A DNA stretch of 64,000 bases from a virus: IMG/VR virus record IMGVR_UViG_3300030019_000576. One strand, written 5' to 3'. How positions within the stretch are numbered: position 1 is the first letter of the stretch; each line of letters begins with the position of its first letter. Shown in pieces: positions 1 through 60,614 of the stretch. A program made the position numbers and the translations under genes. Below the pieces are notes generated by a model. It was given only the letters and a program-made list of their open reading frames with translations, was not told the DNA's origin and made no database searches.

Positions 1-874
1 ATTCAGTTTAAATTCAGTAATGGAAGATTTATTTTTAACTATTAAAAATAAAAATAAAAATCTTGATGTTAAAATAAGATTGAATATACCTAAAATTGAT
101 ATAAAAATAGTAAGTGATAGTTTTAGAATATTACAAGTTCTTAATAATCTTATAAATAATTCAATGAAATTTACTAAAACAGGATATATAGAATTTGGAT
201 ATATTAAGAATGAAGATAATTTTTCATTTTTTGTTAAGGATACGGGGATTGGTATAAAAAAAGAAGAAAAAGATAAAGTATTTGAAAGATATTCACAATT
301 TAAAAATAAAAGCAAAACAAATAAACCAATTGGTCATGGATTAGGGTTAGCAATTTCAAAAGAATTAGTTACTTTAATGGGTGGTAAAATTTTAATGGAA
401 TCAGAATATAATAAAGGTACTACATTCATGTTTACTATTCCGAATAATAAAAAGTTAAATAAAGTTAAAATATTAAAAAGTGATGAAGAATATTATGATT
501 CTAATTTCAATGGTAAAAAAATACTTATCGTTGAAGACATTGACTTCAATATTAAACTATTAGAATCTTATCTTGAAGATACTAACGCAACATTAATAAT
601 CGCAAAAGATGGTAATGATGCTATATTTAAATACAATGAATATAAAAATGACTTAAATATTATATTAATGGATATTCAATTACCCGAAATGAATGGTACT
701 GATGTCACAAAAATAATTAGAACTGTTGATAAAGAAACACCTATAATAGCACAAACAGCTTACGCAATGAAAGATGATATACAAGGGATTATGGATTGTG
801 GTTTTAATGATATTATTAACAAACCGATTAAAAAAGAAGATTTATTAAGAATGATTTATAAATATATTCTTTAA
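1..874 (+). CDS. hybrid sensor histidine kinase C-terminal part (HATPase_c plus REC receiver); 5' partial, the frame is open to the window edge
   Basis: The N-box IRLNIPKIDIKIVSDSFRILQVLNNLINNSMKFT and the G-boxes GHGLGLAISKELVTLMGG identify an HK ATPase. It is followed by KKILIVEDIDFNIKLL...LIIAKDGNDA...ILMDIQLPEMNG...KP, a CheY-like receiver with its Asp. Codons 2-19 carry no stop, so the gene continues upstream of the window. Confidence 0.7.
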   Translation, partial: FSLNSVMEDLFLTIKNKNKNLDVKIRLNIPKIDIKIVSDSFRILQVLNNLINNSMKFTKTGYIEFGYIKNEDNFSFFVKDTGIGIKKEEKDKVFERYSQFKNKSKTNKPIGHGLGLAISKELVTLMGGKILMESEYNKGTTFMFTIPNNKKLNKVKILKSDEEYYDSNFNGKKILIVEDIDFNIKLLESYLEDTNATLIIAKDGNDAIFKYNEYKNDLNIILMDIQLPEMNGTDVTKIIRTVDKETPIIAQTAYAMKDDIQGIMDCGFNDIINKPIKKEDLLRMIYKYIL

Positions 875-1604: not shown

Positions 1605-2132
1605 TTATATAGTTTTCTTTGGTTTTATTACAACAGACATTTTATGACCTTCTAATTTAGGTAATGCTTCTGCTTGACCAAATTCTGATAATGCATCAAC
1701 CAATTTTAATAATAAAAATTGACCTTTATCCGAATATATAATTTCCCTTCCTTTGAAGAAAACATATGCTTTTACCTTATCACCTTTCTTTAAGAAAGCA
1801 GTTGCATGATTTAACTTAAAATCAAAATCATGGTCATCTGTATTAGGTGTAAAACGCAATTCCTTCACTTCTGATAAGTTTTGTTTATTCTTCTTATCTT
1901 GTTCTTTCTTTTTCTTTTTTAATTCATATAGATACTTACTATAATCTTCTATCTTACATATAGATGGGGAAACATTGGAATTTACTTCTATTAAGTCTAA
2001 TCCTTGTTCATTAGCAATTTTTAATGCTTCGTATCGTGTATAAACACCGACTTCAATGTTACTTCCTACAAGACGTACTTCCCTTGAAGTAATCTCATTA
2101 TTAATTTTAACTAAATCTTCTTTTTTTGACAT
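1605..2132 (-). CDS. infC: translation initiation factor IF-3
   Basis: Aligns along its whole length to bacterial IF-3: EVRLVG...GV, ALKIANEQGLDLIEV, PVCKIMDY-like SICKIEDY, KELRFTP.TD.HD...KL, FLKKGDKVK...F+GRE. The start is ATG, not the atypical AUU. Confidence 0.8.
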   Translation of the reverse strand: MSKKEDLVKINNEITSREVRLVGSNIEVGVYTRYEALKIANEQGLDLIEVNSNVSPSICKIEDYSKYLYELKKKKKEQDKKNKQNLSEVKELRFTPNTDDHDFDFKLNHATAFLKKGDKVKAYVFFKGREIIYSDKGQFLLLKLVDALSEFGQAEALPKLEGHKMSVVIKPKKTI

Positions 2133-9082: not shown

Positions 9083-11053
9083 TCAATTTCTTCTTCTAAC
9101 CCTGAATGGATGGTAGTCGTAATTGTTTGTGAAATTTGATTCATCCGCAAATAAATCACGTAGTTCATCTGTTAATTCATTTCCTTCTTCTGAATCAATT
9201 ATATGAATATCTTCTTCAACTTGTCTTGGTTGAAAATCATAAGCATCATAACCATCATACGAAACATTTCTGCGTTGAACTACTGGTTCATCATTTACAA
9301 CTTGTCGAGGTGATTCATCATTTGTAACTTGTCGAGTTGATTCATCATTTGCAACTTGTCGAGGTGATTCATCATTTTCAACTTGTCGAGGTGTTTCAAA
9401 TATGTCTGCCATAGTCTGTCCACCAGGCATGGTAATATGCCCAAGACTTCTACTACCAGTAAGACTTCCATAGAGTGAATTATGTGATACTGAATATGTT
9501 TCATACATTTGATGTAGAGCTTCGGAAGAAGAAGTTAACGTACTTCTTAATCGTCTTGGATCGATTGTTTGTTCTAAATCAGTTTCAGATGGTTCAACAC
9601 CACCATCTTCTACATCATATTGACCCCTATCAGTACGTGGTGCTCTATAATAAGAACCATAAGAATCACCCATACTCTTTTTTTGTTTAGCTTTTCTATT
9701 CTTTAAATAGGTTTCCCTCACTTCATTTGAATAAAAAATTCTACCATTACTTTCTTCAAATTCTACTCCAATAAGTTTGTAATGAATAATAACTTCTTTA
9801 TCTTCCAAATAAGCAGTTCTTGCACTATTTTTGTATATAAATGTATCCATGTATTCAGACCAAATCGCTTCATCAACTAAGAAATATTTAGTGTTACCTA
9901 ACACATTAGAACAAACTATTTTAGGACTTTTGTTATATGCTTTTCTTTCACCTGTATTATGAACATAAACTTCATCACCACGATATACCCATGTTTCATC
10001 AATATCAACATAAACAGCTTCATCTTCTAATATATTTTCATTATAGAATGTACTAAATACACGTGGTCTATCATCAACTTCTGAATGATAACGACCTTGA
10101 TAATCAGTTAAAATAATATGACCAGTTGTAGTACGCAAATCACCATTATTTGATAAAACATGAGTTTCCTTATTATATATTGATAAACTATCAAGATAAG
10201 GATAATATTCATAATGACGTTCAGGGTGTTTATTCAATGTTACTTGAAGAAGCATATCACGATATTCATAAACTGAATTAGTTGTAGGGTCAGCAATTTT
10301 GTTAAACCAACCATAACGTTGTTCAGTTCTATATAACCATCCTTGTTCTTTTGCGTAGTTTTTGAAAATTTCAATATCAAAATCATTCACAGTATAAATT
10401 CTATCCATGAATATACGTTTACTTGGAACTTCTAAATTCCAAAGTATTGCACGACCTTTTAATTTACCTGCATCATCTTTCAATATTAACATACTGAAAA
10501 CATCTGTATTTGAAGTATACATTCCAAGGAATTTACCTGATTCAGTATAACGCATACAAGATTTACCAAGCGGTGTTTCTTGATGTGCAAAACGTGAATA
10601 GTTTTGGTGGTCATACCAAAAACGGATGTCTTCACCTGTAACTACTTCAAAACGTGCGTAGTTAACATTTTTTTCACGTTCAGCTTTAAACATATTAACA
10701 AATGATTCAATATCATTTCTTGTTCTTGGTGCTGGACAATCTTTTGGTTGATTTACAGGAAAATGGTCTTCAAACATCATTTTAATGAGTTTACCAATTT
10801 TCAGATTTGTTCGCTTATCAGTCCAAACAAGTTCTTTCCAAGATACTTCATTAGCACGTACCAATTCCATAAATTTATTGTTGATAATATATGATACATT
10901 ATCATTTTCATTACCAAAATCTAAATATGAAATTCTATCATATTCTTTGTTACGAATTCTGTCTAACAAAGCAAATGATATTTGATGTTCAATGTTACTT
11001 AACATTTCAATAAGTCTTTGTGATGCTTCTAATCTAATGTCTCCACTTTTCAT
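9083..11053 (-). CDS. large hypothetical protein with a C-terminal 9-aa tandem repeat
   Basis: 656-aa ORF with an ATG start. The C-terminal region contains at least four copies of (S/T)PRQVxNDE. No catalytic motif is recognised. Confidence 0.5.
   Translation of the reverse strand: MKSGDIRLEASQRLIEMLSNIEHQISFALLDRIRNKEYDRISYLDFGNENDNVSYIINNKFMELVRANEVSWKELVWTDKRTNLKIGKLIKMMFEDHFPVNQPKDCPAPRTRNDIESFVNMFKAEREKNVNYARFEVVTGEDIRFWYDHQNYSRFAHQETPLGKSCMRYTESGKFLGMYTSNTDVFSMLILKDDAGKLKGRAILWNLEVPSKRIFMDRIYTVNDFDIEIFKNYAKEQGWLYRTEQRYGWFNKIADPTTNSVYEYRDMLLQVTLNKHPERHYEYYPYLDSLSIYNKETHVLSNNGDLRTTTGHIILTDYQGRYHSEVDDRPRVFSTFYNENILEDEAVYVDIDETWVYRGDEVYVHNTGERKAYNKSPKIVCSNVLGNTKYFLVDEAIWSEYMDTFIYKNSARTAYLEDKEVIIHYKLIGVEFEESNGRIFYSNEVRETYLKNRKAKQKKSMGDSYGSYYRAPRTDRGQYDVEDGGVEPSETDLEQTIDPRRLRSTLTSSSEALHQMYETYSVSHNSLYGSLTGSRSLGHITMPGGQTMADIFETPRQVENDESPRQVANDESTRQVTNDESPRQVVNDEPVVQRRNVSYDGYDAYDFQPRQVEEDIHIIDSEEGNELTDELRDLFADESNFTNNYDYHPFRVRRRN
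9284..9396. repeat. 27-bp tandem repeat, about 4 copies, inside the 9083..11053 coding sequence
   Basis: ttcatcatttRYaacttgtcgagKtga repeats head to tail and encodes PRQVxNDES units. Confidence 0.7.
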
Positions 11054-37820: not shown

Positions 37821-39674
37821 TTATTTCTTTGCTGTTGGTGTTACTTTTTCTACTTCTTTCTTATCTTGGATATATTTCATTAATTCTATACCAATAAGAC
37901 TATCAACACCAGAACCACCACCTTGACCACCGTTAATCAAGATTTCAGGAATGATTTTTACACCATTTTTACCAATTTCTTCAATAACTTTAAGTTTTCC
38001 AAAATTTTCAGCACCCATTGCAGTTACTTGACCTTTATATGATTCAGCGTTAGCCTTACCAATTGCTTCAATCTTACCAGCTTCGGCTGCACCCATCATT
38101 TGAATTTTAGCAGCATCTGCTTCTGCATTTACTTTAGTAGCCTTTGCGTTAGCAGCAGCTTTAATTTCAACAGATTTAGCTTCACCCTCTGATTGCTTAA
38201 CAGCAGCTTCTGCTTCACGTTGTGAAATTTCTACTTGTTGTTGAGCAGCAACCATTTTAGGTTGAATATCAGCTAATGCTTTCGCAGTTTCCAACATCTT
38301 CTTTTGGTCTTGTGCTTTTGTTTGTGTTTCGAAAGTAATTTCTTCTTCCTGTGCAATCTTACGGTCAGTTAAAGTCTTCATAAGTGATTCAGGTGGAACG
38401 ATATCACCGATAAGCGTATCTACTGCCTTTACATTATATTCATCCAATACCTTTGTAATTTCAACTTTTGCAGCATTTTGACGTTCTTGACGTGTAGACA
38501 AGAAAGCAATAACATCTGAATCTTGTGCTGAATTACGGAAGTAGTTACCGATTGTTGGTTCAAGTACTTGTGATACAAGGTTTTGCATTGAACCGAAACG
38601 TGCAATTACTTTTGGTGCTTCTACTGATGGAATGTGAATAATTTGTGATACATCCAAATTGAATGGGAAACCATCTTTTGAACGTACTGTAATAGTACTC
38701 AAATTCTTATCAAGATTGTGTGATTCACTACGTGCATTTGCCCAATTAAGTACTAAGTTTGTAGTAGGAACGATTTCAATACGTTGTGTATAAGTATTAA
38801 TTGCATATTTTCCTGGATCAAGTGTTTGTAACCACACCCCTTTATTACCTTTTTCTACAATGTTACCATGTTTAAATCCATCACCAGTGACATCTTTACC
38901 ATCACCACCTACATATGAAATAACAACACCAGCGGTACCAATTGGAATTTCTGTCATTGGTCGTTTTTCAATCTGAATTGCCCAAGGACTTAATGTATAA
39001 GAACCCGCTTGAATAACTTGAATTTGAAGACCACGTTGACCACCATTTTCTAAAAACTTATCGAAGTCTTGGAAGTTATTGTGACCACTAATTTCAGAAC
39101 CTGCAATAGAACCTGTTGTAAGTGGTGTACCATCCAATGTAGTAATAATACCAATTGTACCATCTTCAATAGTTGTAATATCTGCTAAGAATACATCAAA
39201 CAATAGTGAATTAATACGATATACACCGTTATTAAGATAACCAACTTGTTTACCACGAGAACCGTTGTTGTTCAAAAATGCACGTGCATTTTGATAATTA
39301 TCAGATTCTACATGTCGTGCTAAAATAAAACCTACTTCAAGAATTTTACCATCTTTAGCTGATACCATACCAATTTTTCCTTTCGGGATGTCAGTAAATG
39401 CAGCTAAATCAATTTTGTACTGCCATACCCAATAACCCCATCCCAAGAAACCTGGTGCTAATGTATCTGCTTGAAACCCTGCTTCACCATTTAAGGCGAT
39501 AATCTTACCATCTGGTAATGAACGTTCTTTACCAAATAGGACGAATTTTTTCGTAACTAATCCAATTCGGTTTTCTGGAATGATAATCATTCCGAATAGT
39601 ACACGCAAAATTTGCTTGTAAAAAATAATTGCTAACAAAGGGAGCAACACCCACCAATAACTTAAAATTTCCAT
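37821..39674 (-). CDS. SPFH/band-7 flotillin-like membrane protein (YqiK-like)
   Basis: N-terminal TM, an SPFH core (IIPENRIGLVTKKF...) and a long Ala/Glu/Lys-rich coiled-coil C-terminus (AEADAAKIQMMGAAEAGKIEAIGKANAESY). Local GC is clearly higher than in the flanks. Confidence 0.7.
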   Translation of the reverse strand: MEILSYWWVLLPLLAIIFYKQILRVLFGMIIIPENRIGLVTKKFVLFGKERSLPDGKIIALNGEAGFQADTLAPGFLGWGYWVWQYKIDLAAFTDIPKGKIGMVSAKDGKILEVGFILARHVESDNYQNARAFLNNNGSRGKQVGYLNNGVYRINSLLFDVFLADITTIEDGTIGIITTLDGTPLTTGSIAGSEISGHNNFQDFDKFLENGGQRGLQIQVIQAGSYTLSPWAIQIEKRPMTEIPIGTAGVVISYVGGDGKDVTGDGFKHGNIVEKGNKGVWLQTLDPGKYAINTYTQRIEIVPTTNLVLNWANARSESHNLDKNLSTITVRSKDGFPFNLDVSQIIHIPSVEAPKVIARFGSMQNLVSQVLEPTIGNYFRNSAQDSDVIAFLSTRQERQNAAKVEITKVLDEYNVKAVDTLIGDIVPPESLMKTLTDRKIAQEEEITFETQTKAQDQKKMLETAKALADIQPKMVAAQQQVEISQREAEAAVKQSEGEAKSVEIKAAANAKATKVNAEADAAKIQMMGAAEAGKIEAIGKANAESYKGQVTAMGAENFGKLKVIEEIGKNGVKIIPEILINGGQGGGSGVDSLIGIELMKYIQDKKEVEKVTPTAKK

Positions 39675-45505: not shown

Positions 45506-46477
45506 TTAATTATTACTAATAAATTTATCAACAATATCTACACATTGTTTAAATCTGTCTTCAAAATCAGTTCCTTTAATGTAAGAAATATTCTTATCTT
45601 TAAAGTTATTGTATAGCAATTCGTGGAATTTTGAACGATTTGGTTCACCCATCCGACTACCATCATCAACAAAAGGTACATCATTCCATAGGAATAAGTA
45701 TAAATCAAATTTATTTGCATCTTCTACTTCCTTAGTGATATTTTCTGGGTGTTTATCAAATAGAAAGTTACTATAACAAACAGTTGTTATTAAATCAGTA
45801 TCAGAAAATAATATTTTATCCCCTAAGTTTTTTTCAATTTCTTCTGCTTGACCTGTAATTATTAGATTTATCATATCTGTATCACATATTTTTGTATCTG
45901 AACACACATCACGACCTACTTCTTTTGCAAACTTAAAGTTATAGTGATTAGATAATAATTCTGTCATAGTTGATTTACCAGTACTTTCAGTACCACATAT
46001 ACATATTTTTTTAGTATAATATGATTTAACTGATTTTGGTATAAAATTCCAATATTTTAATGGTGTTTCCCTTATTGATGTAGATGAAATCGGTGTGTTT
46101 GTTCTTTTTTCATCGTATTGCATATGTTTAATATTCATAAATCCACCAACATAATCACCATATTTTTCACTTGTGAAAATTATATTCACATCAGGAAATA
46201 AATCTGTTAAATATAAAGACCAAACCCTTGATATTTCAATATTTGATACAGATGTATTTTCCATATGTGATGTATCCTTATGAATTATTTTTATATTAGG
46301 TATATCTTTAAATTCTTCTTGTAACCATTTATATCTAAGTTCGCTTGGAATTTCTTCTTTATCGTGTGAGCATAATAATACATAAAGAAAATCAGAATTT
46401 GATAATCCAAAGTTTATTAAAGAAAGATGTCCATTATGTAAAGGACAAAAACTACCTAATACTAATCCTGTTCTCAT
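45506..46477 (-). CDS. nadR: bifunctional NMN adenylyltransferase / ribosylnicotinamide kinase (NadR type, lacking the HTH domain)
   Basis: GLVLGSFCPLHNGH (HxGH). ISSTSIRETPLKYWNFIPKSVKSYY...ICGTESTGKST aligns with E. coli NadR ISGAQIRENPFRYWEYIPTEVKPFF...ILGGESSGKST. A Walker B DTD is present. Confidence 0.85.
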   Translation of the reverse strand: MRTGLVLGSFCPLHNGHLSLINFGLSNSDFLYVLLCSHDKEEIPSELRYKWLQEEFKDIPNIKIIHKDTSHMENTSVSNIEISRVWSLYLTDLFPDVNIIFTSEKYGDYVGGFMNIKHMQYDEKRTNTPISSTSIRETPLKYWNFIPKSVKSYYTKKICICGTESTGKSTMTELLSNHYNFKFAKEVGRDVCSDTKICDTDMINLIITGQAEEIEKNLGDKILFSDTDLITTVCYSNFLFDKHPENITKEVEDANKFDLYLFLWNDVPFVDDGSRMGEPNRSKFHELLYNNFKDKNISYIKGTDFEDRFKQCVDIVDKFISNN

Positions 46478-46478
46478 T

Positions 46479-47024
46479 TTACGTTGTTTTTAAATGTTTT
46501 TTCCATTCTTTATAACCCGCAATTGATAATATTATTAATAATAAATTATACCCTGCGATGTAATACATATCTTGATGAAGACATAATATAATTAACATTA
46601 CATTATTTATCATAAAAATCCACCAAGATTCAATAACCTTTTTAACTAATAAATATGTTGCAAGTAGTGCGATAATACCACCTATACCATCAAGATATAA
46701 TAAATTATTATTAGTTGTTTTAGTTAATAATGTAAAGATAATACCAATCACCATGCATATTCCTATGCATAGTGCTGATTTAGTATATCCTATTTTTGTA
46801 ACTTCTTTTGTATCAACTTCATTCCATTTTACCCAACCATACGCACATTGACCAACTGAAACAAGTTGTAATACCATCTGTGAATAAAAGTTTACATTAT
46901 AAAAGTAATAGGTTAATAGTACTGCACTAATTAATCCAAATACCCAACAAAGTAGATTTTGTTTAATTGTTAAAAACACACTTACTATTCCAATAATGAC
47001 TGAAATTAATTCAATATTTTTCAT
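46479..47024 (-). CDS. pnuC: nicotinamide riboside transporter
   Basis: CAYGWVKW and C-terminal ESWWIFMINNVM...IAGYNLLLIILSIAGYKEW align with PnuC (NIYGWYAW, ENWLLWVIINV...). Its start overlaps the receptor stop (TAATG). Confidence 0.8.
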   Translation of the reverse strand: MKNIELISVIIGIVSVFLTIKQNLLCWVFGLISAVLLTYYFYNVNFYSQMVLQLVSVGQCAYGWVKWNEVDTKEVTKIGYTKSALCIGICMVIGIIFTLLTKTTNNNLLYLDGIGGIIALLATYLLVKKVIESWWIFMINNVMLIILCLHQDMYYIAGYNLLLIILSIAGYKEWKKHLKTT

Positions 47025-48997
47025 TAAAATTTAACTTTAACTGTTGTATAAAAATTAAGTGGAGCACCTATAAAATAAGCATTTTCCCCATTTGAAACAT
47101 ACCCACCCGTAAAGTATTTAGTGTTAGTTAAATTATTACCTTGAATTGATAAGTTTACATTTTTAGTTAATTGATAACCAATTTTTGCATTGAATAATAC
47201 ATAACCAGGAATTGTTTCAGTATTTGCAGGATTAATAAATGCATCCGATAAATATCGACCAGATACGTTTATAAAGAGCTTACCGTTGTTGTATTCAATA
47301 TTCTGATTAACTATTACATTTGGTGTATAAAGTGCGTGATATGATGTGTTATCACCTTTAATTTCACTATTCATTAATGTTGTATTATTATTTATAGATA
47401 AATTTTTTGTAAGATTACATGAAAAATCAAATTCTGCACCATAACGTGAACTTTTATCTACATCTGTCATTAATGGTAAACTATTTAACCCCATTGCACC
47501 TAATTGTGTAATTTCATTATTAAAGTCCATATAAAACAAATTACTTTGAAGTTTCACAACACTATTTGATAAGTTATAACCAAGTTCATAGTCAATAACA
47601 CTTTCAGGTTTAATTATAAATAAATCAACTAAATTATCATTCCCACCGAACATGTCACTTCTTGTAGGTTCACGGTGTGATTGACCAACCGAAAAATACA
47701 AAGATTCATTATTTGTAATTGTGTATGTCACACCCCCACGTGGATTTAAAAACAACCAATTAATTCGTTTCATTGGATTATCACCTATGTAAGTGAAGTT
47801 AACATTACGTAATTGTAAGTCAGTAAATAAACTAAATTTATTTATATCATAATTTGCTTTGATGTAAAAACTTCCTTCGTTTTTATATCCAGTATTTGTA
47901 TATAAGGAATCAATCTGAACAGAACCAGGGTGTGTCATATTTCCACTGTGTGTTCGATTATATGTATTAAGCTGAAATCCAGTGTTAAATTTTAAATCAT
48001 TATATTTTATAAGATAATTTGATGTGAACCCAACGAAATTAGAATTTAATCCAAAATTAAGCAAGTCAGTTGGTGCAGTAAACATACCCCATTTACCATC
48101 TAAATGATTGTAAAAGAAAGTATTTGTTAGAACATAATTACTTGATTCACTATGAACATATTGTAACTGTACAAAACTTTGATTAAAATCATCATTTTCA
48201 CCTTTAGGGTTATAATTTGTGCGAGGGTCTTTTAATATATCAGATTCTGATACTGCATACCATGCCATTTGATTAATTGATTTACCCGAAAATGCAGTCA
48301 ACTTTAATACATCCTTATTACCATAGTATCCACCCGAAAGAAATGCTGAATAACCACTACCACTTGAATTATATTTATACCCATCACTTGTATATTCTGA
48401 TACACTACCAAATAACGCAAATTTATTAATTAAACCCGTACCAAAATTAACATTAAGTGATTGTGTTCCAAAACTACCCGATGTAAAACTTGCATTAAAA
48501 CCTTTATCTAAACCTGTTTTACTTTCAAAATTAATACTACCACCATATGAAGATGTACCATTTGCTGATGTACCAATACCACGTTGGATTTGCATAGAAT
48601 TAATATTCATTGCGAAATTAGGAAAATTGCTAAAATATACCCCTTGGTCTTCACTTTCATTTAACGGAATACCATTTAATGTCATATTTATACGTGTTTG
48701 GTCAATTCCACGAATTCGAAATGATACATATCCATTAGGTTGACCACCATCAGATTGTGATGTAATTGATGGTGTTTTATCTAAAATATACACCATTTCT
48801 TGACCACTGTATTGCTTATCAATGTCAACACTATTGACAACTTTTTGGGAAATAGGTGTTTTAATATCTGGTCGAATACCTACAACTTCCACGTCATTTA
48901 ACTTTACTACTTTTACAGTATCTTTTGATACTTGCGAATAAGAGGTAAACACATTAAATAATGCGATAACCAACACAAAAAATTTAATTTTCTTCAT
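47024..48997 (-). CDS. TonB-dependent outer-membrane receptor
   Basis: Signal peptide MKKIKFFVLVIALFNVFTSYSQ, an N-terminal plug region, a long beta-barrel with alternating aromatic strands and a C-terminal ...VKVKF (terminal Phe). Confidence 0.7.
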   Translation of the reverse strand: MKKIKFFVLVIALFNVFTSYSQVSKDTVKVVKLNDVEVVGIRPDIKTPISQKVVNSVDIDKQYSGQEMVYILDKTPSITSQSDGGQPNGYVSFRIRGIDQTRINMTLNGIPLNESEDQGVYFSNFPNFAMNINSMQIQRGIGTSANGTSSYGGSINFESKTGLDKGFNASFTSGSFGTQSLNVNFGTGLINKFALFGSVSEYTSDGYKYNSSGSGYSAFLSGGYYGNKDVLKLTAFSGKSINQMAWYAVSESDILKDPRTNYNPKGENDDFNQSFVQLQYVHSESSNYVLTNTFFYNHLDGKWGMFTAPTDLLNFGLNSNFVGFTSNYLIKYNDLKFNTGFQLNTYNRTHSGNMTHPGSVQIDSLYTNTGYKNEGSFYIKANYDINKFSLFTDLQLRNVNFTYIGDNPMKRINWLFLNPRGGVTYTITNNESLYFSVGQSHREPTRSDMFGGNDNLVDLFIIKPESVIDYELGYNLSNSVVKLQSNLFYMDFNNEITQLGAMGLNSLPLMTDVDKSSRYGAEFDFSCNLTKNLSINNNTTLMNSEIKGDNTSYHALYTPNVIVNQNIEYNNGKLFINVSGRYLSDAFINPANTETIPGYVLFNAKIGYQLTKNVNLSIQGNNLTNTKYFTGGYVSNGENAYFIGAPLNFYTTVKVKF

Positions 48998-51332: not shown

Positions 51333-52055
51333 TTATTTAAATTTTTCATCAAATATATCAAAATTATCACCTACTGAATTGTTATCGTTAATAATAGCAA
51401 AGACAACATTTTTAAATAAATCAGCGTATCCATTTGTTACTAAGATATTATAAAACAAATTTGAAATTATTTCAGGATTGTTTTTAAATACACCACACCC
51501 CCAAGCACCAATAACAATATTTTCAACATTGTTATTGATTGCAAGTGATAACATCAATTTTATTTTATTTTTTGTTGTATCAATATAATAAGAATTATCA
51601 TAATTACAAATTTCATTAAGATTCATTGCAGCAATAGTAATAACATCAGATACAATTTCGTCCATATAATCATAATTTACATCTTTAAAAAATATCGCAT
51701 CCTTTGTATATAACGCTTGATTTTCAACTAATGGATAGAATATATTACTTATAACATTAAATAGATTAGAACACCTAAAAAGACATTCTTCTTGTGCTTT
51801 TGCACCATTTTCTACACCACCACCAGGTCTGGAAGGTGATGCCATATTAAGAACACAACTTTTACCTAATTTACTAACAATTTCCAATGCTGTTACCGAA
51901 TCAGAATTAACTACTAATATATTATTTTTAATACTTGGTGTAACTGCAATTGTTACTGAATCAAGAAAAGTATGTTTAGTAGTGACTGATTTATTCATGT
52001 CAATACTATAATTTTTAGTATCTTTGAATACATTAATTAATTTATCATTGTTCAT
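51333..52055 (-). CDS. bacterial-type poly(ADP-ribose) glycohydrolase-like macrodomain protein (DUF2263/TIGR02452-like)
   Basis: NMASPSRPGGGVENGAKAQEECLFRCSNL contains the bacterial PARG catalytic signature GGG-X7-QEE. Confidence 0.55.
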   Translation of the reverse strand: MNNDKLINVFKDTKNYSIDMNKSVTTKHTFLDSVTIAVTPSIKNNILVVNSDSVTALEIVSKLGKSCVLNMASPSRPGGGVENGAKAQEECLFRCSNLFNVISNIFYPLVENQALYTKDAIFFKDVNYDYMDEIVSDVITIAAMNLNEICNYDNSYYIDTTKNKIKLMLSLAINNNVENIVIGAWGCGVFKNNPEIISNLFYNILVTNGYADLFKNVVFAIINDNNSVGDNFDIFDEKFK

Positions 52056-54293: not shown

Positions 54294-55430
54294 ATGAAAA
54301 AAATGAAAAACTTTAATGAATTTATATTTGAAGGTATAGATATCAATAAAAAACAGTTTATAGTAAACAAAATTTTATCACATTTAAAAATAAAATTGTT
54401 TTATGTATCCACTTATCAAATGTCATTCACTATGATATTACCATTGATGGAAAAATTCTTTGAAGGAAATAGATTTTCATTTGATAAAACACCATATAAT
54501 AAAACATTGTTATACATATACGCATATTCTATTTTATGCTATGAAAACAAAGATAAGTTAAGAATTATTTATGATGAACTACATTCTAAAAATATTCAAG
54601 ATAAAGAAATACAATATGCTATAAATGTTTTGAATAATATAAAATTATTATTTATTAAATTGATGGATAGTTCTGATAAGCATATTAAAACTTTCATTGA
54701 TGTATTAAAAAATAATGCATTATTTATACCTTACTTATCAGTACTTACTTCTTTGATAAATAATGAAAGATTAAATATTGAATTATTCACTGGAAAATTT
54801 GCAGATTTCCAACTTGAATTAGGGGAAGAAAACTTTAATATATTGATAATCAAGATAATAAATAAAATGAATATTATAGCAGGTGGTACAAATAAGTTAC
54901 AAAATAAAGAAAATGCAAAACCATTCTTAGTAAATGATGAATTTAAATCACCAATGTATCAATCAGAAAAACCATTTATATATGATAATCTTACAGAAGG
55001 TATAAATGATTATTTAACAGGTCCAAGTGATGAAGAAATAATGAAAAAAAATCATCTAATTGGATTATCCCCTGATAGATTATTAGTTGATTCAAGTAAA
55101 ATAGGTTATTTAGTTGGTGTAAAGAAAGCATTAGAATCGGGTGCTGATTTACATTGTGATGAAGATAACGCACTTGTATTAGCATGTAAAAATGGTAAAG
55201 CAGATGTAGTAAAATATTTAATAGAACAAGGTGCAGATGTACATACTGGAAATGATGAACCATTAAAAATGAGTGCTTTTTCAGGTTCATTAGATACATT
55301 CAAAGCTGTTATTGATTCGGGTGAAGAATTTGACGGTGAAACACAATCAATAGTAGCAGATTATGCATTTACATCTGATGCTTTAATGGATTATATAATG
55401 GAAATTTGGGAAGCAGATGATTTAAAATAA
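54294..55430 (+). CDS. ankyrin-repeat protein
   Basis: The C-terminal third has at least three ANK repeats (ALESGADLHCDEDNALVLACKNGKADVVKYLIEQGADVHTGNDEPLKMSAFSGSLDTFKAVIDSG). Confidence 0.55.
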   Translation: MKKMKNFNEFIFEGIDINKKQFIVNKILSHLKIKLFYVSTYQMSFTMILPLMEKFFEGNRFSFDKTPYNKTLLYIYAYSILCYENKDKLRIIYDELHSKNIQDKEIQYAINVLNNIKLLFIKLMDSSDKHIKTFIDVLKNNALFIPYLSVLTSLINNERLNIELFTGKFADFQLELGEENFNILIIKIINKMNIIAGGTNKLQNKENAKPFLVNDEFKSPMYQSEKPFIYDNLTEGINDYLTGPSDEEIMKKNHLIGLSPDRLLVDSSKIGYLVGVKKALESGADLHCDEDNALVLACKNGKADVVKYLIEQGADVHTGNDEPLKMSAFSGSLDTFKAVIDSGEEFDGETQSIVADYAFTSDALMDYIMEIWEADDLK

Positions 55431-55727: not shown

Positions 55728-55729
55728 TT

Positions 55730-55951
55730 ATGTTTAGAGACGAAAAAACAGGACAAGATTTTGCGGGTTCCCAAAATGTATGGTTAAAAAGACTTGGTTT
55801 ATATATTATAATTGTTGCAGTATTTTCAAGTTTTTTTAAAGCACATATAATATTATTCTTTGTAATTCTATTTACTATTTTAGGGTTAGCAATTTTACGA
55901 TATCTCGGTAGAGGGTTTATACAGTTTTTTAAAGATTTATTCTTTAAGTAA
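55730..55951 (+). CDS. small membrane protein
   Basis: Two TM helices; followed directly by a terminator. Confidence 0.4.
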   Translation: MFRDEKTGQDFAGSQNVWLKRLGLYIIIVAVFSSFFKAHIILFFVILFTILGLAILRYLGRGFIQFFKDLFFK

Positions 55952-55987
55952 AAAAAAAGGTTGATTTAATTATCAACCTTTTTTCTT
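55951..55987. terminator. bidirectional rho-independent terminator
   Basis: AAAAAAAGGTTGAT-ttaatt-ATCAACCTTTTTTC. Confidence 0.65.
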
Positions 55988-56568
55988 TTTATATTCATTA
56001 TTTTATACATTCTCAAATATACCGCTATATCATCTAAGAATTCTAATGTTATATCCTTAAAATCATTATGTTCCTTCAAAATAGATATATGATTATACGT
56101 TTGTTCATTATTAAGACTTCCATTAACAAATAGCTGTATATTCTTTAACTTCACTTGTTCCGATATGATTTTAATATCTTCTTCATCTTTTTGAATATTA
56201 CTGAAATCATCAATCATTAAAACATCAATAGGACTATTATTTATTGCTTGCATTAAATAAATAATATTATGTACTATTAATATTTTTGTATTTGCAACAC
56301 GTATTACATTTATTGAATTATGTAAAGCTAATAATTTTGATTCTTCTGATTCATCATTTAAATCACGTAATATATCAAAAACAGTATGAATAGAATTTCT
56401 ATTATTTATTAGTATAACTATGTGTTTATTATCATTTTCATATGCATATCTTGATACACAATATAATTGTGTTTGTGTTTTACCTACCATATTTTCTGAA
56501 AAAAAAGAAAAATTTTTGTCACTAATATAGTCACATATTAAATCCATTTTATCCTTATCAATTTTCAT
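55966..56568 (-). CDS. RecA/DnaB-like P-loop ATPase (tentative)
   Basis: NMVGKTQ (a degenerate Walker A with GKT) and VLMIDD (Walker B-like); 200 aa. Confidence 0.35.
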   Translation of the reverse strand: MKIDKDKMDLICDYISDKNFSFFSENMVGKTQTQLYCVSRYAYENDNKHIVILINNRNSIHTVFDILRDLNDESEESKLLALHNSINVIRVANTKILIVHNIIYLMQAINNSPIDVLMIDDFSNIQKDEEDIKIISEQVKLKNIQLFVNGSLNNEQTYNHISILKEHNDFKDITLEFLDDIAVYLRMYKIMNIKRKKVDN

Positions 56569-57013
56569 TTCTTATATTGTTTAAAATTCTTTCAATTTTT
56601 TGTCTTCTTAATAATAGTTGCACTTCATGCATATCAACATGATTATCATAATAGTCCGATGTAATTGTTAGTTCTATATCCCCATAATTATTTTCATCTT
56701 CACAAATAGGAATTGAAAAACTTCTTAATATACTATTATATAAATGATATGATTTTGTATTATCTAAAAATAAATAAATATCACTTACTTTATATGAAGA
56801 AGATATTCCGAATGTTTTGTTACATCTTAAATACCAATCACGTATTTCTGTAAATACTGATGGGATAAAAGAAATTGTTATATCATGTTCAATATTAACA
56901 TTAATATTCTTATTTGTAAATACGGATGTCTGATATATAGCATTATTTTGAACAGTGCTGTGAATTGAGTTTATTTGAGTGTTAATGTTTAAATCGGGTA
57001 TTATTAATAACAT
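56558..57013 (-). CDS. hypothetical protein carrying the EKIEKI-type tail
   Basis: Ends in LLLRRQKIERILNNIRNEN, the same tail and junction seen in the 13.3-14.7 kb family. Confidence 0.4.
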   Translation of the reverse strand: MLLIIPDLNINTQINSIHSTVQNNAIYQTSVFTNKNINVNIEHDITISFIPSVFTEIRDWYLRCNKTFGISSSYKVSDIYLFLDNTKSYHLYNSILRSFSIPICEDENNYGDIELTITSDYYDNHVDMHEVQLLLRRQKIERILNNIRNEN

Positions 57014-57067
57014 ATACCATTTTATTTTTATATATTATATAATATATAAAATGTTTATTATTAAATT

Positions 57068-57100
57068 AAAAAAGGTGTATTATTTCTAACACACCTTTTC
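57068..57100 (-). terminator. rho-independent terminator after clpP
   Basis: AAAAAAGGTGTattatttctaaCACACCTTTTC. Confidence 0.55.
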
Positions 57101-57104
57101 AGTT

Positions 57105-57785
57105 TTAATCCATTCCAATGATTTTATCAATTGCACCGTATTCTTTAGCTTCAACCGAAGTCATCCAATAATCACGTTCACAATCTGCTGAAACTTTTTC
57201 AAGTGGTTGACCAGTCCTGGTTGAAATAATTTCATATAATTCATTCTTTAAAAGTTGAATTTGTTTGTATGTTATTTCAATTTCAGTTGCTTGACCTTGA
57301 ACACCCCCAAGTGGTTGATGTTGCATTAACCGTGAATGTTTTAAACAAGACCGATTTTTTCCCGATATAGATAGAATGTATGCCATACTTGCAGCAATAC
57401 CTGTTACTATCGTATTTACATCCGGTTTAATAAATTCCATCGTATCAAGAATACTATATCCAGCGTAAATTCCACCACCACCACTATTAATATATAAATT
57501 AATATCAGTTTTATCTGTTGAATTCATATAAAGTAATTGTCCTGTAATAATGTTAGATACATCATCATTGATAGCTGTTCCTAAATAGATAATTCGATCC
57601 ATCATCAAACGACTAAATACATCCATTGAAGCAACGTTTAACTGTCGTTCTTCAATGATAGTTGGATTAATATAACTGCTACTAAGTGTATTAGTAAATT
57701 TGCGATAACTATCTAAAGTTGTAGAACTTATACCTTGTGATTTTAAAAATAAGTTCACATCTTTTTGAAATTTTTGTTCGTTCAT
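57105..57785 (-). CDS. clpP: ATP-dependent Clp protease proteolytic subunit, with an N-terminal extension of about 45 aa
   Basis: GIAASMAY (catalytic Ser), LMQHQPLGG (His) and ERDYWMT (Asp) are intact; YINSGGGGIYAG is the INSPGG loop. Confidence 0.75.
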   Translation of the reverse strand: MNEQKFQKDVNLFLKSQGISSTTLDSYRKFTNTLSSSYINPTIIEERQLNVASMDVFSRLMMDRIIYLGTAINDDVSNIITGQLLYMNSTDKTDINLYINSGGGGIYAGYSILDTMEFIKPDVNTIVTGIAASMAYILSISGKNRSCLKHSRLMQHQPLGGVQGQATEIEITYKQIQLLKNELYEIISTRTGQPLEKVSADCERDYWMTSVEAKEYGAIDKIIGMD

Positions 57786-57814
57786 AATTTATTTGTTTTA
57801 AAATTGTTTTTATA

Positions 57815-58879
57815 TTATTTAAAATTGTTAAGTTTTGAAAGTTGATTTAATAATTCTTCTTCTTCATCCGTTATTTGTTTTGGTATTGTTAAATTAACAA
57901 CTACTAATAAATCACCTCTATTACCACGTTGGTCTGCTAATCCCTTACCTTTAAGTTTTTTAACATCATTTGGTTTAGTGAATTTATTTATTACTATTTT
58001 AACATCACCTTCTAACGCTGGTATAATTGCTTCACCACCTAATATTAGCTTAGTATATGGAAGATATAAATTAAATATAAGATTTTGTCCGTCTCTTTGT
58101 AATTGTGTATTATTAATAACATCTATAAATATAATAAGATTCCCATAAATTCCACCATTTCCTGGTCTAATAGGTGAATTACCTTTACCACTTGCTTGAA
58201 ATTTATCACCATGATTAATACCTTTTGGTACGTTCACATTTAATTCTGTTTCTTCCTTTACAACACCAGTACCTTTACATTCATTACATTCATGTGTAAT
58301 AATATATCCATCACCTTTACATTTAGGACAGTCAACAGTTGACATAATTATGGTTGAACCCATTTGTCTTTTCATGTTTACCTTACCCGAACCATTGCAA
58401 TCTGAACAAGTATCGTGTTCCCCACCCCAACCATCACAAGATTTACATTTAACTTCACGATTATATTTAATCTTTTTATCTAACCCACTGATAACATCAG
58501 TTAAATCAATAGAAATTTTTAATTTAATATCATATCCACGTTTTATATTACGATTTGGTTGTGATTGAAATCCACCACCAAATCCACTGAATCCACCGAA
58601 TGCACTACCAAACATATCAGCGAATATATCACCTGAATTAAATCCACCAAACCCTGTTGGACCATCTGGATTACCATAGTTATCATAATTAGATTTTTTA
58701 GCATCATCACCTAAAACAGAATATGCTTCTGAAAGGTCTTTAAATTTTTCTTCGAAATCTTTATGTTCAGGATTCTTATCAGGGTGATATTTTTTTGCTA
58801 AGTTTCGGTATGCTTTTTTAATATCATCTTTTGATGTATTTTTATCTACACCTAAAACTTCATAATAATTTTTTGACAT
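57815..58879 (-). CDS. dnaJ: molecular chaperone DnaJ (type I: J domain, G/F region, four CxxCxGxG repeats, C-terminal domains)
   Basis: YYEVLGV...[13 protein letters not shown] includes the HPD motif. A G/F-rich linker follows, then [32 protein letters not shown]. Confidence 0.8.
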
Positions 58880-58931
58880 ATATACGTAATTTCTTTTTGG
58901 TTATTATATTCAAAAAATACAAAAAAGTTTA

Positions 58932-59327
58932 TTAATATTTATGTCTAAATGCATACACATAATTATTATCACAGTTTAAGAAAACACTATATGTAACATC
59001 ACCTTTTTCTTCACGTGTATTACCATTTAAATGTATATATTTTGTTAAGTAATAATATTCAAATGATTTTGCTGTTTGAAAATCTTTTGTTACAACTGAT
59101 GTATGATCACAATATCCACGTTCATCAAAAGTATAAATAATTACATTCCCTCTTACATTAACCAACATCATTGATGTATGGTTTTTATCATTCATAGTGG
59201 TTATTTTAAACCCCTTGAATTCTTTCATAACTTCATTTTTTTCTCTGCCTATTCTTTCGTAATCTTGGGAATATGTAGAAATTGATAATGATAACAGCAT
59301 TGCTAAAAATACCAAAATCTTTTTCAT
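58932..59327 (-). CDS. secreted hypothetical protein
   Basis: Signal peptide MKKILVFLAMLLSLSISTYSQ. Confidence 0.45.
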   Translation of the reverse strand: MKKILVFLAMLLSLSISTYSQDYERIGREKNEVMKEFKGFKITTMNDKNHTSMMLVNVRGNVIIYTFDERGYCDHTSVVTKDFQTAKSFEYYYLTKYIHLNGNTREEKGDVTYSVFLNCDNNYVYAFRHKY

Positions 59328-59435
59328 TTTTTCATTTATACATTTATTTTTTTAATATTAATTAAACTATATATTGTTTATATTTATCTATATACTGCTT
59401 TATTATTAAAAGTTTAAAAAAAAGTTAAAATAATT

Positions 59436-60614
59436 TTATACATCATATATTGGACATCCAATATTACATTTTCTACATGCTGAAACCTTGTCACCAAAAT
59501 CAGTTGTTTTTTTATTAAACCATACATCAGTCATAAAATCATTACAATTTGAAACCATTATACCTTGTTTCCAACCATCGGTACCTTCTGTAAATGAACA
59601 AGGAAAATATTCTGAATTAACATTAATATATGCTGAATATTTTCCACCTGCTTCACATGGTTCAATAAAAGTTTTCATATATTCATATTCAGTATTTTTA
59701 TTTATGAAAATATTTGCTTTTGCAGCAGAACAACTATCAAATCCTATACTAATTTTGTTATCAATTGCAAATTTAAAAAGATTGTCAAATTTTTCTTGTG
59801 ATAAATTAGTAAATCTACCAACACTTCTACCTTTTTCTTTAAGTGATAAAAATACAATACTTCTTAATTCAGATAATCTAATATCAGATTTTATATCATT
59901 CAAAATTTCAAATGCATTATCATAAGTTTCTTCTGAAATCATAACATGCAAATTACATTGTTTCAATCCTTTATCAGTTAGTTTTTTTACCGTATCATAT
60001 GATTTATCTTTATCATATACACTAACTGCAACTGCACCACAATATTTAACTAATTTATTAATATCATCATCAGTTGCTTCACCGTTTATTGTTATAGTTG
60101 GTATAATATCATTTGATTTAGTATAGTCTAATATATCCCATAAATCAGGACATAAATCAATGCTACCGATACCAAAAGCAATAGATGTTACAGATGGTGG
60201 TAATTTATGGAAAGTGTCTTTAAAGTCTTTAAATGAAATATTTTTACCATTTTTTATTGTATTGCTTTTATAACAAAATGCACATCCCATACTACATTTT
60301 TCACTAATTTCCCAATCAACAATTTCAGGTGCAGTTACACTAAAATCACCATCTGTTTTTAAATCAGTAAAAAATTCGTGTATATTTATTTTTACACCCC
60401 ACATATTAGACCATATACGATGTAATTTAATATCAAAAAGATTAAATCCTTTTTCTAAATTTGTATAATCACCTTTTCCCCAACGAATAAAAAAACCCGT
60501 TTGTTTATTAAATAAAAAATTATATTTTTCACTTTTAAGTGCTTTAAAAAGTGATGTATCAATAATAGTTGCTACATCACCATTTATCAAAATAATATTT
60601 GTTGTTTTAATCAT
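59436..60614 (-). CDS. radical SAM / SPASM-domain protein (anSME- or RiPP-maturase-like)
   Basis: EKCSMGCAFCY is the CxxxCxxC cluster. The C-terminus has a Cys-rich SPASM-like region (CEAGG...CSF...CND...CRKCNIGCP). Confidence 0.6.
   Translation of the reverse strand: MIKTTNIILINGDVATIIDTSLFKALKSEKYNFLFNKQTGFFIRWGKGDYTNLEKGFNLFDIKLHRIWSNMWGVKINIHEFFTDLKTDGDFSVTAPEIVDWEISEKCSMGCAFCYKSNTIKNGKNISFKDFKDTFHKLPPSVTSIAFGIGSIDLCPDLWDILDYTKSNDIIPTITINGEATDDDINKLVKYCGAVAVSVYDKDKSYDTVKKLTDKGLKQCNLHVMISEETYDNAFEILNDIKSDIRLSELRSIVFLSLKEKGRSVGRFTNLSQEKFDNLFKFAIDNKISIGFDSCSAAKANIFINKNTEYEYMKTFIEPCEAGGKYSAYINVNSEYFPCSFTEGTDGWKQGIMVSNCNDFMTDVWFNKKTTDFGDKVSACRKCNIGCPIYDV

Follow-up and report, generated by a model that had tools for sequence, protein, structure and literature searches.

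The window, by which we mean the whole 64,000-nucleotide (64-kb) stretch of viral DNA analysed here, is likely a fragment of a Mahaphage/Lak-like megaphage whose probable host belongs to the Bacteroidota. Its ClpP, DnaJ and IF-3 genes would then be long-resident phage-lineage descendants of Bacteroidota housekeeping genes, functional and kept under selection. What the sequence shows directly is what the genes are, which motifs they carry, how conserved and how constrained by selection they are, and their gene context and taxonomic affinity. The coordinates of the features are collected in Table 1.

Table 1. Features of the window, with position, strand and the basis of each assignment.
Feature	Position	Strand	Basis
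Hairpin and T-run directly after the IF-3 stop codon	1580..1605	-	terminator-like site
Translation initiation factor IF-3, 175 aa, ATG start	1605..2132	-	IF3_N, IF3_C, TIGR00168
13-bp palindromic stem with runs of A and T on its flanks; likely a bidirectional terminator at the end of the DnaJ-ClpP unit	55953..55984	.	terminator-like site
Two ORFs without family assignment, 151 aa and 200 aa, after ClpP in the same transcription unit	55966..57013	-	ORF calls
Cellular-type ClpP proteolytic subunit, 226 aa, Bacteroidota type	57105..57785	-	Pfam PF00574, NF011091, triad
ClpP N-terminal region, residues 1-38; predicted two-helix hairpin, then flexible linker	57672..57785	-	AF2, homologue conservation
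Class A (type I) DnaJ co-chaperone, 354 aa	57815..58879	-	J domain, Zn-finger, DnaJ_C

An earlier note on this DNA had called the three genes phage-encoded, and the genes that are not host-like bear this out. A 656-aa orphan protein and a primase-like protein had matches only in five Mahaphage genomes of more than 634 kb, then in Lak and Cellulophaga phages, and the best phage matches of ClpP, DnaJ and IF-3 lie in these same genomes. Relatives were found on IMG/VR contigs and on a scaffold of 669,408 bp; of the contigs with exactly these ClpP and IF-3 proteins, the longest measures 67,409 bp. A GC content of about 25% and the placement of 118 of 126 genes on a single strand also point to a phage. 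Capsid, portal, terminase (TerL), MCP and tail genes are absent from the 64-kb window, as are genes for ClpX, Hsp100, DnaK and GrpE, thus phage identity and the choice of partner proteins rest on homology to other contigs. The best and exclusive matches to phages of more than 634 kb and the relative on the 669-kb scaffold indicate that the placement is probably Mahaphage/Lak-like. Nucleotide megablast of positions 55000-61000 against deposited phages gave no match. Recoding of TAG as in Lak phages was considered and rejected: the standard code gives 93% coding and TAG is merely rare, ending 3 of 126 genes.

A bacterial contig, for example from a reduced low-GC symbiont, or a mis-assembled host fragment would make the three genes ordinary housekeeping genes. 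Such an origin would suit the lack of structural phage genes, the presence of host-like genes (a TonB-dependent receptor, a histidine-kinase fragment, PnuC and NadR) and the MAG labels on some close homologues. However, the bacterial operon contexts of clpP, dnaJ and infC (tig-clpP-clpX, grpE-dnaJ and thrS-infC-rpmI-rplT) do not occur in the window, ARAGORN found no tRNAs in it, and ribosomal protein families were absent among the 59 larger ORFs scanned. The orphan genes match megaphage genomes only, and many ORFs match PHROGs families, including HNH endonucleases and RNA ligases. The identical locus, with its gene order kept, recurs across many metagenomes, among them JGI 3300031521, 3300028864 and 3300029983 and ENA ERZ27248704. 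We regard a bacterial source as exceedingly unlikely.

The ClpP protein matched Pfam CLP_protease PF00574 with 202.8 bits (E-value 5.6e-60, cutoff 20.2), and its residues 14-223 correspond to positions 9-217 of the 221 in the NCBIfam model NF011091. Its identity with ClpP from E. coli and B. subtilis is 44-51%, it matches solved ClpP structures with E-values down to 2.7e-55, and its AF2 model has a mean pLDDT of 88.5. The Ser-His-Asp triad, previously described as intact, is S133/H156/D205; none of the three residues varies across 14 aligned sequences, E. coli and B. subtilis among them, or across the 75 of a larger alignment. Residues of the ATPase-docking pocket (Y62, F82, I90 and L114 in E. 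coli numbering) are kept, and the axial-loop and docking-pocket residues have the Bacteroidota state in phage and bacterial ClpP alike. Judged from its sequence, the protein is a divergent member of the ClpP family (MEROPS S14). Its scores lie below the NCBIfam equivalog cutoffs (280.5 vs 361 bits for NF011091; 215.7 vs 308.6 bits for TIGR00493), as does that of DnaJ (346.1 bits vs the TIGR02349 cutoff of 377.2), and function may be altered in both.

The best PHROGs matches of ClpP are 'head maturation protease' families (phrog_94, 1.8e-38), and NCBIfam Clp_rel_HeadMat gave 84 bits, as might be expected if the gene encoded a phage head-maturation (prohead) protease and not a proteostasis protease. 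However, the 84.4 bits with NF045542 are under that model's own cutoff of 120, against 280 bits with the cellular NF011091. Identity to operonic bacterial ClpP is about 60%, and ClpP is paired with Hsp100 or ClpX in relatives. Prohead proteases (MEROPS S14; NF045542) share the fold and the catalytic Ser-His with the window ClpP, but they adjoin portal, scaffold and capsid genes and do not have the N-terminal hairpin for unfoldase coupling. The window ClpP has neither this context nor this architecture: it keeps the axial hairpin, its neighbours are DnaJ and unassigned ORFs, and head or packaging families were absent from the PHROGs matches listed for the 59 larger window ORFs. A prohead protease is very unlikely here.

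We compared the N-terminal part of ClpP with solved structures. Against 3tt7, residue 40 of the window protein pairs with residue 4; against 3mt6, the 207-aa E. coli precursor, residue 39 pairs with residue 16. Residues 40-56 align with residues 4-20 of solved ClpPs, with the axial beta-hairpin predicted by AF2 as strands 42-46 and 51-55. Measured against ClpP of B. subtilis or the mature E. coli protein, the additional stretch is thus about 36-38 aa and not the approximately 45 aa given previously. AF2 predicts helices at 3-16 and 21-36 (pLDDT about 68-79) and a linker at 35-38 (pLDDT below 50) in this region, where G18, Y27, Y38 and I39 are nearly invariant among 75 ClpP homologues. The dN/dS of the first 38 codons is 0.25. 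The earlier note had named, as a finding that would count against it, an extension produced by start-codon choice, with an internal Met at about residue 46. The stretch is no such artefact: no Met occurs near 46; the nearest internal one, M54, lies inside the conserved axial hairpin, and translation from it would remove this hairpin.

The N-terminal region was common to the best 80 matching species-representative genomes, 79 of them labelled Bacteroidota and one a MAG labelled Roseobacteraceae. It is also present in a Bacteroidales ClpP encoded in a tig-clpP-clpX-lon operon. As far as these alignments go, the "extra" N-terminus is the normal Bacteroidota form and no phage invention. The earlier note had proposed that the extension, sitting at the axial pore, could give the phage enzyme other substrates or ATPase partners, and also that the IF-3 reprograms initiation for leaderless phage mRNAs. 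The region is indeed real, translated and constrained, and the phage clade has substitutions of its own, namely Q155 and a 2-aa deletion. But the shared N-terminus of the bacterial genomes and operonic clpP, and the axial-loop and pocket residues of the same type in phage and bacterial copies, speak against a redirected specificity. The phage-specific reading of the extension is largely refuted already, and together with its IF-3 part, considered below, it is very improbable. A length difference from E. coli or Bacillus references can be a host-phylum trait and not a viral innovation, a caution that applies to similar comparisons. When the 40-aa N-terminus was searched by itself with phmmer among 1.84 billion representatives, nothing significant was matched, the query being too short to judge occurrence in other proteins. 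A literature search on the Bacteroidota ClpP N-terminus found nothing relevant, and the N-terminal hairpin of Bacteroidota-type ClpP offers a modest lead.

The following proposals on oligomeric state, partners, substrates and timing draw on what is known of the families. ClpP would assemble into a tetradecamer, an ordinary Ser-His-Asp protease core like that of Bacteroidota, including the two-helix N-terminal region of that phylum. It would require an AAA+ unfoldase, which may be host ClpX or a phage Hsp100 or ClpX encoded elsewhere in the genome. Hsp100 and ClpX genes do accompany ClpP in related huge-phage contigs: an Hsp100 gene is directly upstream of ClpP in three loci and near it in three others, and ClpX is within 8 kb of ClpP in two more. 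Mahaphages LR756502 and LR745206 carry an Hsp100 as well.

The DnaJ protein contains the Pfam J domain (89.3 bits), DnaJ_CXXCXGXG and DnaJ_C (114.6 bits). The HPD motif and four zinc-finger repeats had been reported as intact, and we confirmed both: H32-P33-D34 is invariant in the alignment, as are the eight cysteines of the CxxCxGxG repeats, C145/148/158/161/184/187/198/201, and the glycines that go with them. The protein has a G/F region, which is shorter than in Bacteroidota DnaJ. The C-terminal tail (SFFxxMxxxF) is missing, the protein ending about 20 aa before bacterial homologues and before the homologue in one of the loci with Hsp100 directly upstream of ClpP; this loss is common to the DnaJ of the window clade. 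The tail has been implicated in DnaJ dimerisation in E. coli. We propose that DnaJ, whose gene is just upstream of ClpP and probably transcribed with it, would use its HPD motif to recruit host DnaK, with the zinc-finger and C-terminal domains serving to bind client proteins. It may in this way help the folding or triage of a very large phage proteome.

The comparison with host genes bears on the age of the three copies, which could have been recent host copies or divergent phage versions. The best 80 ClpP matches among species genomes are 54-62% identical, with no bacterial match above 62%, and an NJ tree places the window ClpP within a virus-only clade of 31. Q155 was found in 16 of 74 viral ClpP copies and in 0 of 81 bacterial ones, and the 2-aa deletion is confined to the sub-clade of the window. 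By these sequence measures the genes are old phage-lineage copies and not recent host copies. Affinity to Bacteroidota, clear from the ClpP matches, is also seen in DnaJ, 40-44% identical to copies from Tenuifilaceae, Draconibacterium and Rikenellaceae, and in IF-3, 56-59% identical to those of Chitinophagaceae. The dN/dS values are 0.096 for ClpP and 0.118 for IF-3; both genes are under purifying selection. Pseudogenisation in close relatives, raised as a possible objection, was not seen, since intact genes occur there for ClpP (87% identity), DnaJ (98% and 74%) and IF-3 (87%). The description of all three as essentially full-length holds for the open reading frames, which are intact; it does not quite hold at the ends, where DnaJ is without the last 20 or so residues of Bacteroidota DnaJ and IF-3 is without the long N-terminal tail of its closest bacterial homologues.

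DnaJ and ClpP are 29 nt apart with no terminator-like site between them, which raises the idea of a coupled phage module, in which the J-protein delivers or triages substrates for the phage Clp protease and the two are not independent helpers. The distance from DnaJ to ClpP is at most about 1.3 kb in two loci of the window clade, in two further loci and in the three loci with Hsp100 directly upstream of ClpP, where the order is Hsp100-ClpP-x-DnaJ. Loci with DnaJ near ClpP span at least two separately placed ClpP lineages and both gene orders, and ClpA gp292 adjoins DnaJ gp293 in Atu_ph07. In contrast, the closest relative (87% identity in ClpP) has a DUF723 gene and not DnaJ upstream of ClpP, and in Lak and LR7565xx phages the two genes are tens to hundreds of kb apart. 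DnaJ is 10 kb or less from ClpP in only about 13 of about 85 viral loci, which is near chance for co-location at that scale. Such coupling is unlikely on balance. A broader proposal is similarly doubtful: a recurrent Bacteroidota huge-phage cassette, DnaJ-ClpP or Hsp100-ClpP-DnaJ, would couple the J-protein (its tail lost here) to the Clp protease, for example as triage factor or adaptor, and the ClpP N-terminal hairpin would be a retained gating or adaptor-docking element and not a cleaved propeptide. The repeated ClpP-DnaJ linkage in several huge-phage lineages, sometimes with an Hsp100 ATPase, is nevertheless a modest lead.

The two ORFs that follow ClpP were considered for a role as Clp partners, which we claim for neither. 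No relatives of the 151-aa ORF were detected. The 200-aa ORF, in which P-loop-like GKT and hhhhDD motifs occur, gave only sub-threshold matches to P-loop families and none in the PDB; weak positional homologues of it lie downstream of ClpP in a locus of the window clade (26% identity, E 4e-7) and in the closest relative (31%). Sigma-70 promoter scans gave matches no more frequent than in shuffled sequence and were uninformative here.

IF-3 scored 168.3 bits against TIGR00168, above the cutoff of 60, and both IF3_N and IF3_C are present, in agreement with the earlier description of intact N- and C-domains. The Lys-rich linker is present and the conserved C-domain residues are retained. An in-frame TAG is 12 nt upstream of the ATG, and rpmI and rplT are not among the gene neighbours. 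A non-AUG autoregulatory start and the thrS-infC-rpmI-rplT operon are typical of infC organisation, a regulatory habit that does not define the protein. The bacterial infC comparators differ in this respect, one having an ATA start within the operon and another an ATG start. The ATA codon of the former is a point in favour of reprogrammed initiation by the phage IF-3, but the ATG of the latter stands against it. We also tried the idea that the ATG start frees the phage infC from IF-3 autoregulation; its support is mixed because the Bacteroidota infC genes start with ATA in one case and ATG in the other.

The phage IF-3 had been said to fit leaderless or short-leader mRNAs, and the window genes do not agree with this. 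Because nearly all genes share one strand (118 of 126) and the median gap between genes is 9 nt, most start codons are internal to polycistronic transcripts. Motifs resembling Shine-Dalgarno (SD) sequences were found upstream of 1 of 125 genes, against a background of 9%, and the regions upstream of genes are 60-73% A at positions -14 to -3. Since the genes are polycistronic with A-rich leaders and no SD motifs, initiation is, as read from the sequence, SD-independent in the Bacteroidota style and not leaderless. We suggest that the phage IF-3 would supplement the host IF-3 pool. With more of the factor, 30S subunits may stay free and start-codon fidelity may be upheld on the AUG-initiated, SD-less phage mRNAs with A-rich leaders.

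The presence of IF-3, ClpP and DnaJ in huge phages has already been published, and the set in the window is ordinary for a megaphage. Lak and other huge phages reportedly carry auxiliary translation and proteostasis genes, as described by Devoto and colleagues in 2019. The new details are the adjacency of DnaJ and ClpP in several huge-phage lineages, some with Hsp100-ClpP-DnaJ, and the missing C-terminal tail in the DnaJ of the window clade. IF1 and IF3 are encoded in huge phages (Al-Shayeb et al. 2020, PMC7162821), and jumbo phages encode ClpP, DnaJ and IF3 (Iyer et al. 2021, PMC7824862).

Among cellular proteins, Bacteroidota ClpP (NF011091/PRK14514 type, tig-clpP-clpX-lon) shares with the window ClpP the length of about 220-228 aa, the N-terminal region of about 38 aa, the triad, the type of pocket residues and the axial-loop sequence PTIIEERQLNVA-MDVFSRLMMDRII, at 54-62% identity. 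Unlike the bacterial gene, the phage gene adjoins DnaJ and not tig and clpX, and its clade has Q155 (MQHQP), GYSILDTM, the 2-aa deletion after G142-K143 and a shorter C-terminus. Bacterial IF-3 (infC, TIGR00168) has both domains, the Lys-rich linker and the conserved C-domain residues in common with the window IF-3, whereas the window gene lies outside the thrS-infC-rpmI-rplT operon, starts with ATG and has a linker 2 aa longer. Compared with Chitinophagaceae IF-3, the closest bacterial homologues, the long Gly/Arg/Phe-rich N-terminal tail is missing.

Among phages, the functional categories of the window genes have been described in Mahaphage, Lak and jumbo phages. Phage LR756501, of 735 kb, has an IF-3 with 55% identity to that of the window, and the window ClpP and DnaJ are 52-58% and 35-37% identical, respectively, to the Lak and LR7565xx copies. 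The window lineage is distinct from deposited huge phages: it comes from non-gut metagenomes, has no nucleotide-level match to any deposited phage, and has DnaJ and ClpP adjacent where they are far apart in Lak and LR7565xx. Agrobacterium phage Atu_ph07 (ClpA gp292-DnaJ gp293, ClpP, ClpX, ClpS; PMC6102473) and Bacillus phage G (ClpP-ClpX; PMC12484599) likewise encode a cellular-type ClpP with chaperone or unfoldase genes. They belong to other lineages with hosts of other phyla, and no unfoldase gene is visible within the 64-kb window; Atu_ph07 resembles the window in having a Clp component next to DnaJ. The gene set supports a Bacteroidota host for the window phage and adds one more lineage to the known pattern of megaphages that carry their own pieces of the host translation and protein-quality-control machinery.

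The reading frames that the earlier note had called ClpP, DnaJ and IF-3 were found at the positions it had given, each on the minus strand, and profile searches confirmed their identities (for IF-3, TIGR00168 scored 168 bits against a cutoff of 60). The motifs described as intact were borne out, namely the catalytic triad of ClpP (S133/H156/D205), the HPD motif of DnaJ (residues 32-34) with all eight cysteines of its four CxxCxGxG repeats, and the conserved residues of the IF-3 C-domain.

Location of the three genes and of other features in the window and in related contigs
Feature	Location	Strand	Remarks
ClpP	57105..57785	-	226 aa; Pfam CLP_protease, 5.6e-60
DnaJ	57815..58879	-	354 aa; J domain, DnaJ_CXXCXGXG, DnaJ_C
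IF-3	1605..2132	-	175 aa; IF3_N, IF3_C
Histidine-kinase ATPase domain fused to response-regulator receiver domain	20..874	+	Minority strand, window edge
656-aa protein	9083..11053	-	No Pfam or PHROGs family; multi-copy family
SPFH/Band-7 protein	37821..39674	-	617 aa
NadR-like adenylyltransferase/kinase	45506..46477	-	
TonB-dependent outer-membrane receptor	47024..48997	-	657 aa; full-length (Plug + beta-barrel)
Microbial PARG-like protein	51333..52055	-	
Ankyrin-repeat protein	54294..55430	+	Adjoins ClpP unit, opposite strand
Palindromic hairpin	55953..55984		
200-aa ORF	55966..56568	-	P-loop-like GKT and hhhhDD motifs
Three tandem ankyrin-repeat genes	L018:12878-15967		Position equivalent to the window's
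Hsp100-ClpP-DnaJ cassette	L007:7918-12404; L010:7924-11907; L008		IMG/VR contigs of 83-232 kb
Bacteroidota-type ClpP and divergent ClpP paralogue	L011:3651-15281; L012; L013		GC 24-25%; opposite strands, 29% identity

The sole claim able to make this finding unusual was that of a phage-specific ClpP extension of about 45 residues that could redirect specificity, and it was not upheld. Alignment to solved structures places residue 40 of the window ClpP at residue 4 of Bacillus subtilis ClpP, and residue 39 at residue 16 of the Escherichia coli precursor, so the extra stretch is about 36-38 residues long. It is not an artefact of start-codon choice with the true start at a methionine near residue 46, because nearly all of the best 120 homologues are 216-254 aa long with a query coverage of 91-100%, and the closest internal methionine is M54, a start at which would remove the conserved axial hairpin. 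NF011091, the NCBIfam model for Bacteroidota-type ClpP (221 positions), matches residues 14-223. An alignment through the N-terminus revealed the motif DF..F.K..G[IV]S...L..Y.K common to the ClpPs of the window, Bacteroidales and Muribaculaceae, and one of these bacterial proteins comes from a classic tig-clpP-clpX-lon operon. The best 80 matches of a scan with a single genome for each species (54-62% identity) start at query residues 1-19; 79 are labelled Bacteroidota and one, a MAG, is labelled Roseobacteraceae. The N-terminal stretch is thus a phylum trait of Bacteroidota.

Residues G18, Y27, Y38 and I39 are nearly invariant in 75 ClpP homologues. AlphaFold2 predicted helices at 3-16 and 21-36 (pLDDT about 68-79) and a low-confidence linker at 35-38, followed by the canonical axial hairpin and core (pLDDT above 90). 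The first 38 codons are under purifying selection (dN/dS of 0.25 vs. 0.075 in the core). Phage ClpP and the ClpP of bacterial Bacteroidota share the axial-loop differences from E. coli (R12L, E14V, R15A, K25M) as well as those at the pocket (M92T, F112S/T), and at the level of sequence we see no sign that the pore has been retargeted.

The three proteins were also compared with bacterial copies, as the earlier note had proposed, and they resemble divergent phage versions rather than recent host acquisitions. Bacterial ClpPs are at most 62% identical to the window ClpP in the one-genome-per-species scan, and when 74 viral and 81 bacterial sequences were placed in a crude NJ tree with midpoint rooting, the window protein grouped with viruses only, in a clade of 31. 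Q155 (MQHQP) occurs in 16 of these viral sequences and in none of the bacterial ones; a 2-aa deletion is limited to the window sub-clade. DnaJ belongs to a discrete set of 342-366 aa proteins, 47-98% identical to it, followed after a clear score gap by Bacteroidota DnaJs of 374-392 aa at 38-45%. In DnaJs of the phage clade the G/F region is shorter, 4 aa are deleted from the first zinc-finger loop and an insertion adds 3-4 aa; they also lack the C-terminal tail of about 20 aa (...SFFxxMxxxF), which is kept in the more distant phage DnaJ of contig L007. The C-terminal tail region of E. coli DnaJ is implicated in dimerisation. IF-3 identities grade from 87% to 60% among proteins of 173-177 aa; next come proteins of about 200 aa from Chitinophagaceae and other Bacteroidota at 56-59%, which, unlike phage IF-3, carry a long Gly/Arg/Phe-rich N-terminal tail. 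Against relatives of 87% identity, dN/dS was 0.096 for ClpP and 0.118 for IF-3. All three appear to be long-resident, functional phage genes.

The window (GC about 25%) has 126 gene calls, 118 of them on the minus strand, at a coding density of 93%. Given the single strand and a median intergenic gap of 9 nt, most start codons lie inside long transcripts. A Shine-Dalgarno-like 4-mer was found in 1 of 125 upstream regions vs. a background of 9%, and A content reaches 60-73% at positions -14 to -3. Initiation independent of Shine-Dalgarno sequences has been described for Bacteroidota; the start signals match this mode and not leaderless translation, so that the rationale for IF-3 based on leaderless or short-leader mRNAs is not supported. 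ATG is the start codon of the phage infC, and a TAG in the same frame precedes it by 12 nt. The two Bacteroidota infC genes compared differ in their start, which is ATA in a MAG with a thrS-infC-rpmI-rplT operon (L181:1501) and ATG in a Chitinophagaceae (Mycovorax) locus with no rpmI or rplT after it (L180:1501), which makes the argument for escape from start-codon autoregulation weak. Among stop codons, TAG is rare (3, vs. 99 TAA and 24 TGA), and the coding density under the standard code does not point to recoding of TAG in the window of the kind seen in Lak phages.

No tRNAs, no capsid, portal, terminase or tail families, and no ClpX, Hsp100, DnaK or GrpE were detected in the window. Its recognisable genes are typical megaphage cargo: PnuC, a NadR-like enzyme, RNA ligases, polynucleotide kinase, primase, a sigma factor, HNH endonucleases, radical-SAM, PARG-like and SPFH proteins and a TonB-dependent receptor. 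The receptor gene is conserved in identical loci from other samples. PnuC (Pfam NMN_transporter) and the NadR-like enzyme constitute NAD-salvage cargo. A PARP-domain protein is encoded nearby in the related contig L017.

The window lacks a hallmark gene, so it is assigned by homology. The 656-aa orphan and a primase-like protein match only the five Mahaphages, whose genomes exceed 634 kb (LR756501-504, LR745206), and after these Lak and Cellulophaga phages; by tblastn, the orphan family occurs at 15 places in the 735-kb LR756501 and 14 in LR756504, and matches Cellulophaga phages. These genomes also give the best phage matches of ClpP (52-58%) and DnaJ (35-37%), and that of IF-3 is LR756501 (55%). 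Bacteroidetes hosts were predicted for exactly these Mahaphages (Al-Shayeb et al., PMC7162821). Several metagenomes yield an identical ClpP, on 13 contigs in all, and the six loci displayed have the same order of genes; a copy of 69% identity lies on a 669,408-bp scaffold. We conclude that the window is probably a fragment of a Mahaphage-like megaphage, in keeping with the phage origin assumed earlier.

DnaJ and ClpP are separated by 29 nt with no terminator-like site, and the unit continues through two unknown ORFs up to the palindromic hairpin; a hairpin and T-run directly follow IF-3. The 200-aa ORF ending this unit has weak homologues in the same position in L017 and in L097, the closest relative (ClpP 87%), and its Terminase_6N and DEAD matches are all sub-threshold. 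DnaJ directly adjoins ClpP in L073 and L075, one or two small ORFs intervene in L017 and L018, and in L097 the gene upstream of ClpP is a DUF723 gene. In L007, L008 and L010 ClpP comes a few nt after a double-AAA+ Hsp100-like ATPase (683-694 aa, read as lacking the N-domain and having a VGF tripeptide), and DnaJ comes next, with at most one small ORF in between (one in L007). The seven loci L007, L008, L010, L017, L018, L073 and L075 belong to two or more ClpP lineages that are placed separately. Hsp100 also adjoins ClpP in viral contigs L052 and L095 and is encoded by Mahaphages LR756502 and LR745206; in L011 and L012, ClpX and another, divergent ClpP lie no more than 8 kb from ClpP. Such neighbours support ClpP as a probable genuine ATP-dependent protease. 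They argue against a prohead protease, for which the model score was 84 bits vs. a cutoff of 120. The ClpX-like gene of L011-L013, about 8 kb away at most, is 64% identical to a Bacteroidales ClpX.

A DnaJ gene lies no farther than 10 kb from ClpP in only some 13 of roughly 85 viral loci, and the two are far apart in Lak and LR7565xx genomes. The linkage is not universal, and functional coupling is a lead rather than a finding. That DnaJ and Clp form a functionally coupled cassette and that, in addition, the N-terminal hairpin of Bacteroidota-type ClpP is functional, we regard as improbable.

The earlier interpretation therefore stands for gene identities and phage origin, and not for the phage-specific extension or the leaderless rationale. 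IF1 and IF3 were reported in huge phages (Al-Shayeb et al. 2020, PMC7162821), and ClpP, DnaJ-domain co-chaperones, ClpA, ClpX and IF3 in jumbo phages (Iyer et al. 2021, PMC7824862). "Multiple molecular chaperones" were noted in Lak phages (Devoto et al.), and moraphages infecting Bacteroidota have DnaJ and DnaK. Atu_ph07 encodes seven Clp-family genes and DnaJ, with ClpA adjacent to DnaJ (PMC6102473), and in phage G ClpP is adjacent to ClpX (PMC12484599). The ClpP, DnaJ and IF-3 set of the window is ordinary for a megaphage, and its gene kinds are already known.
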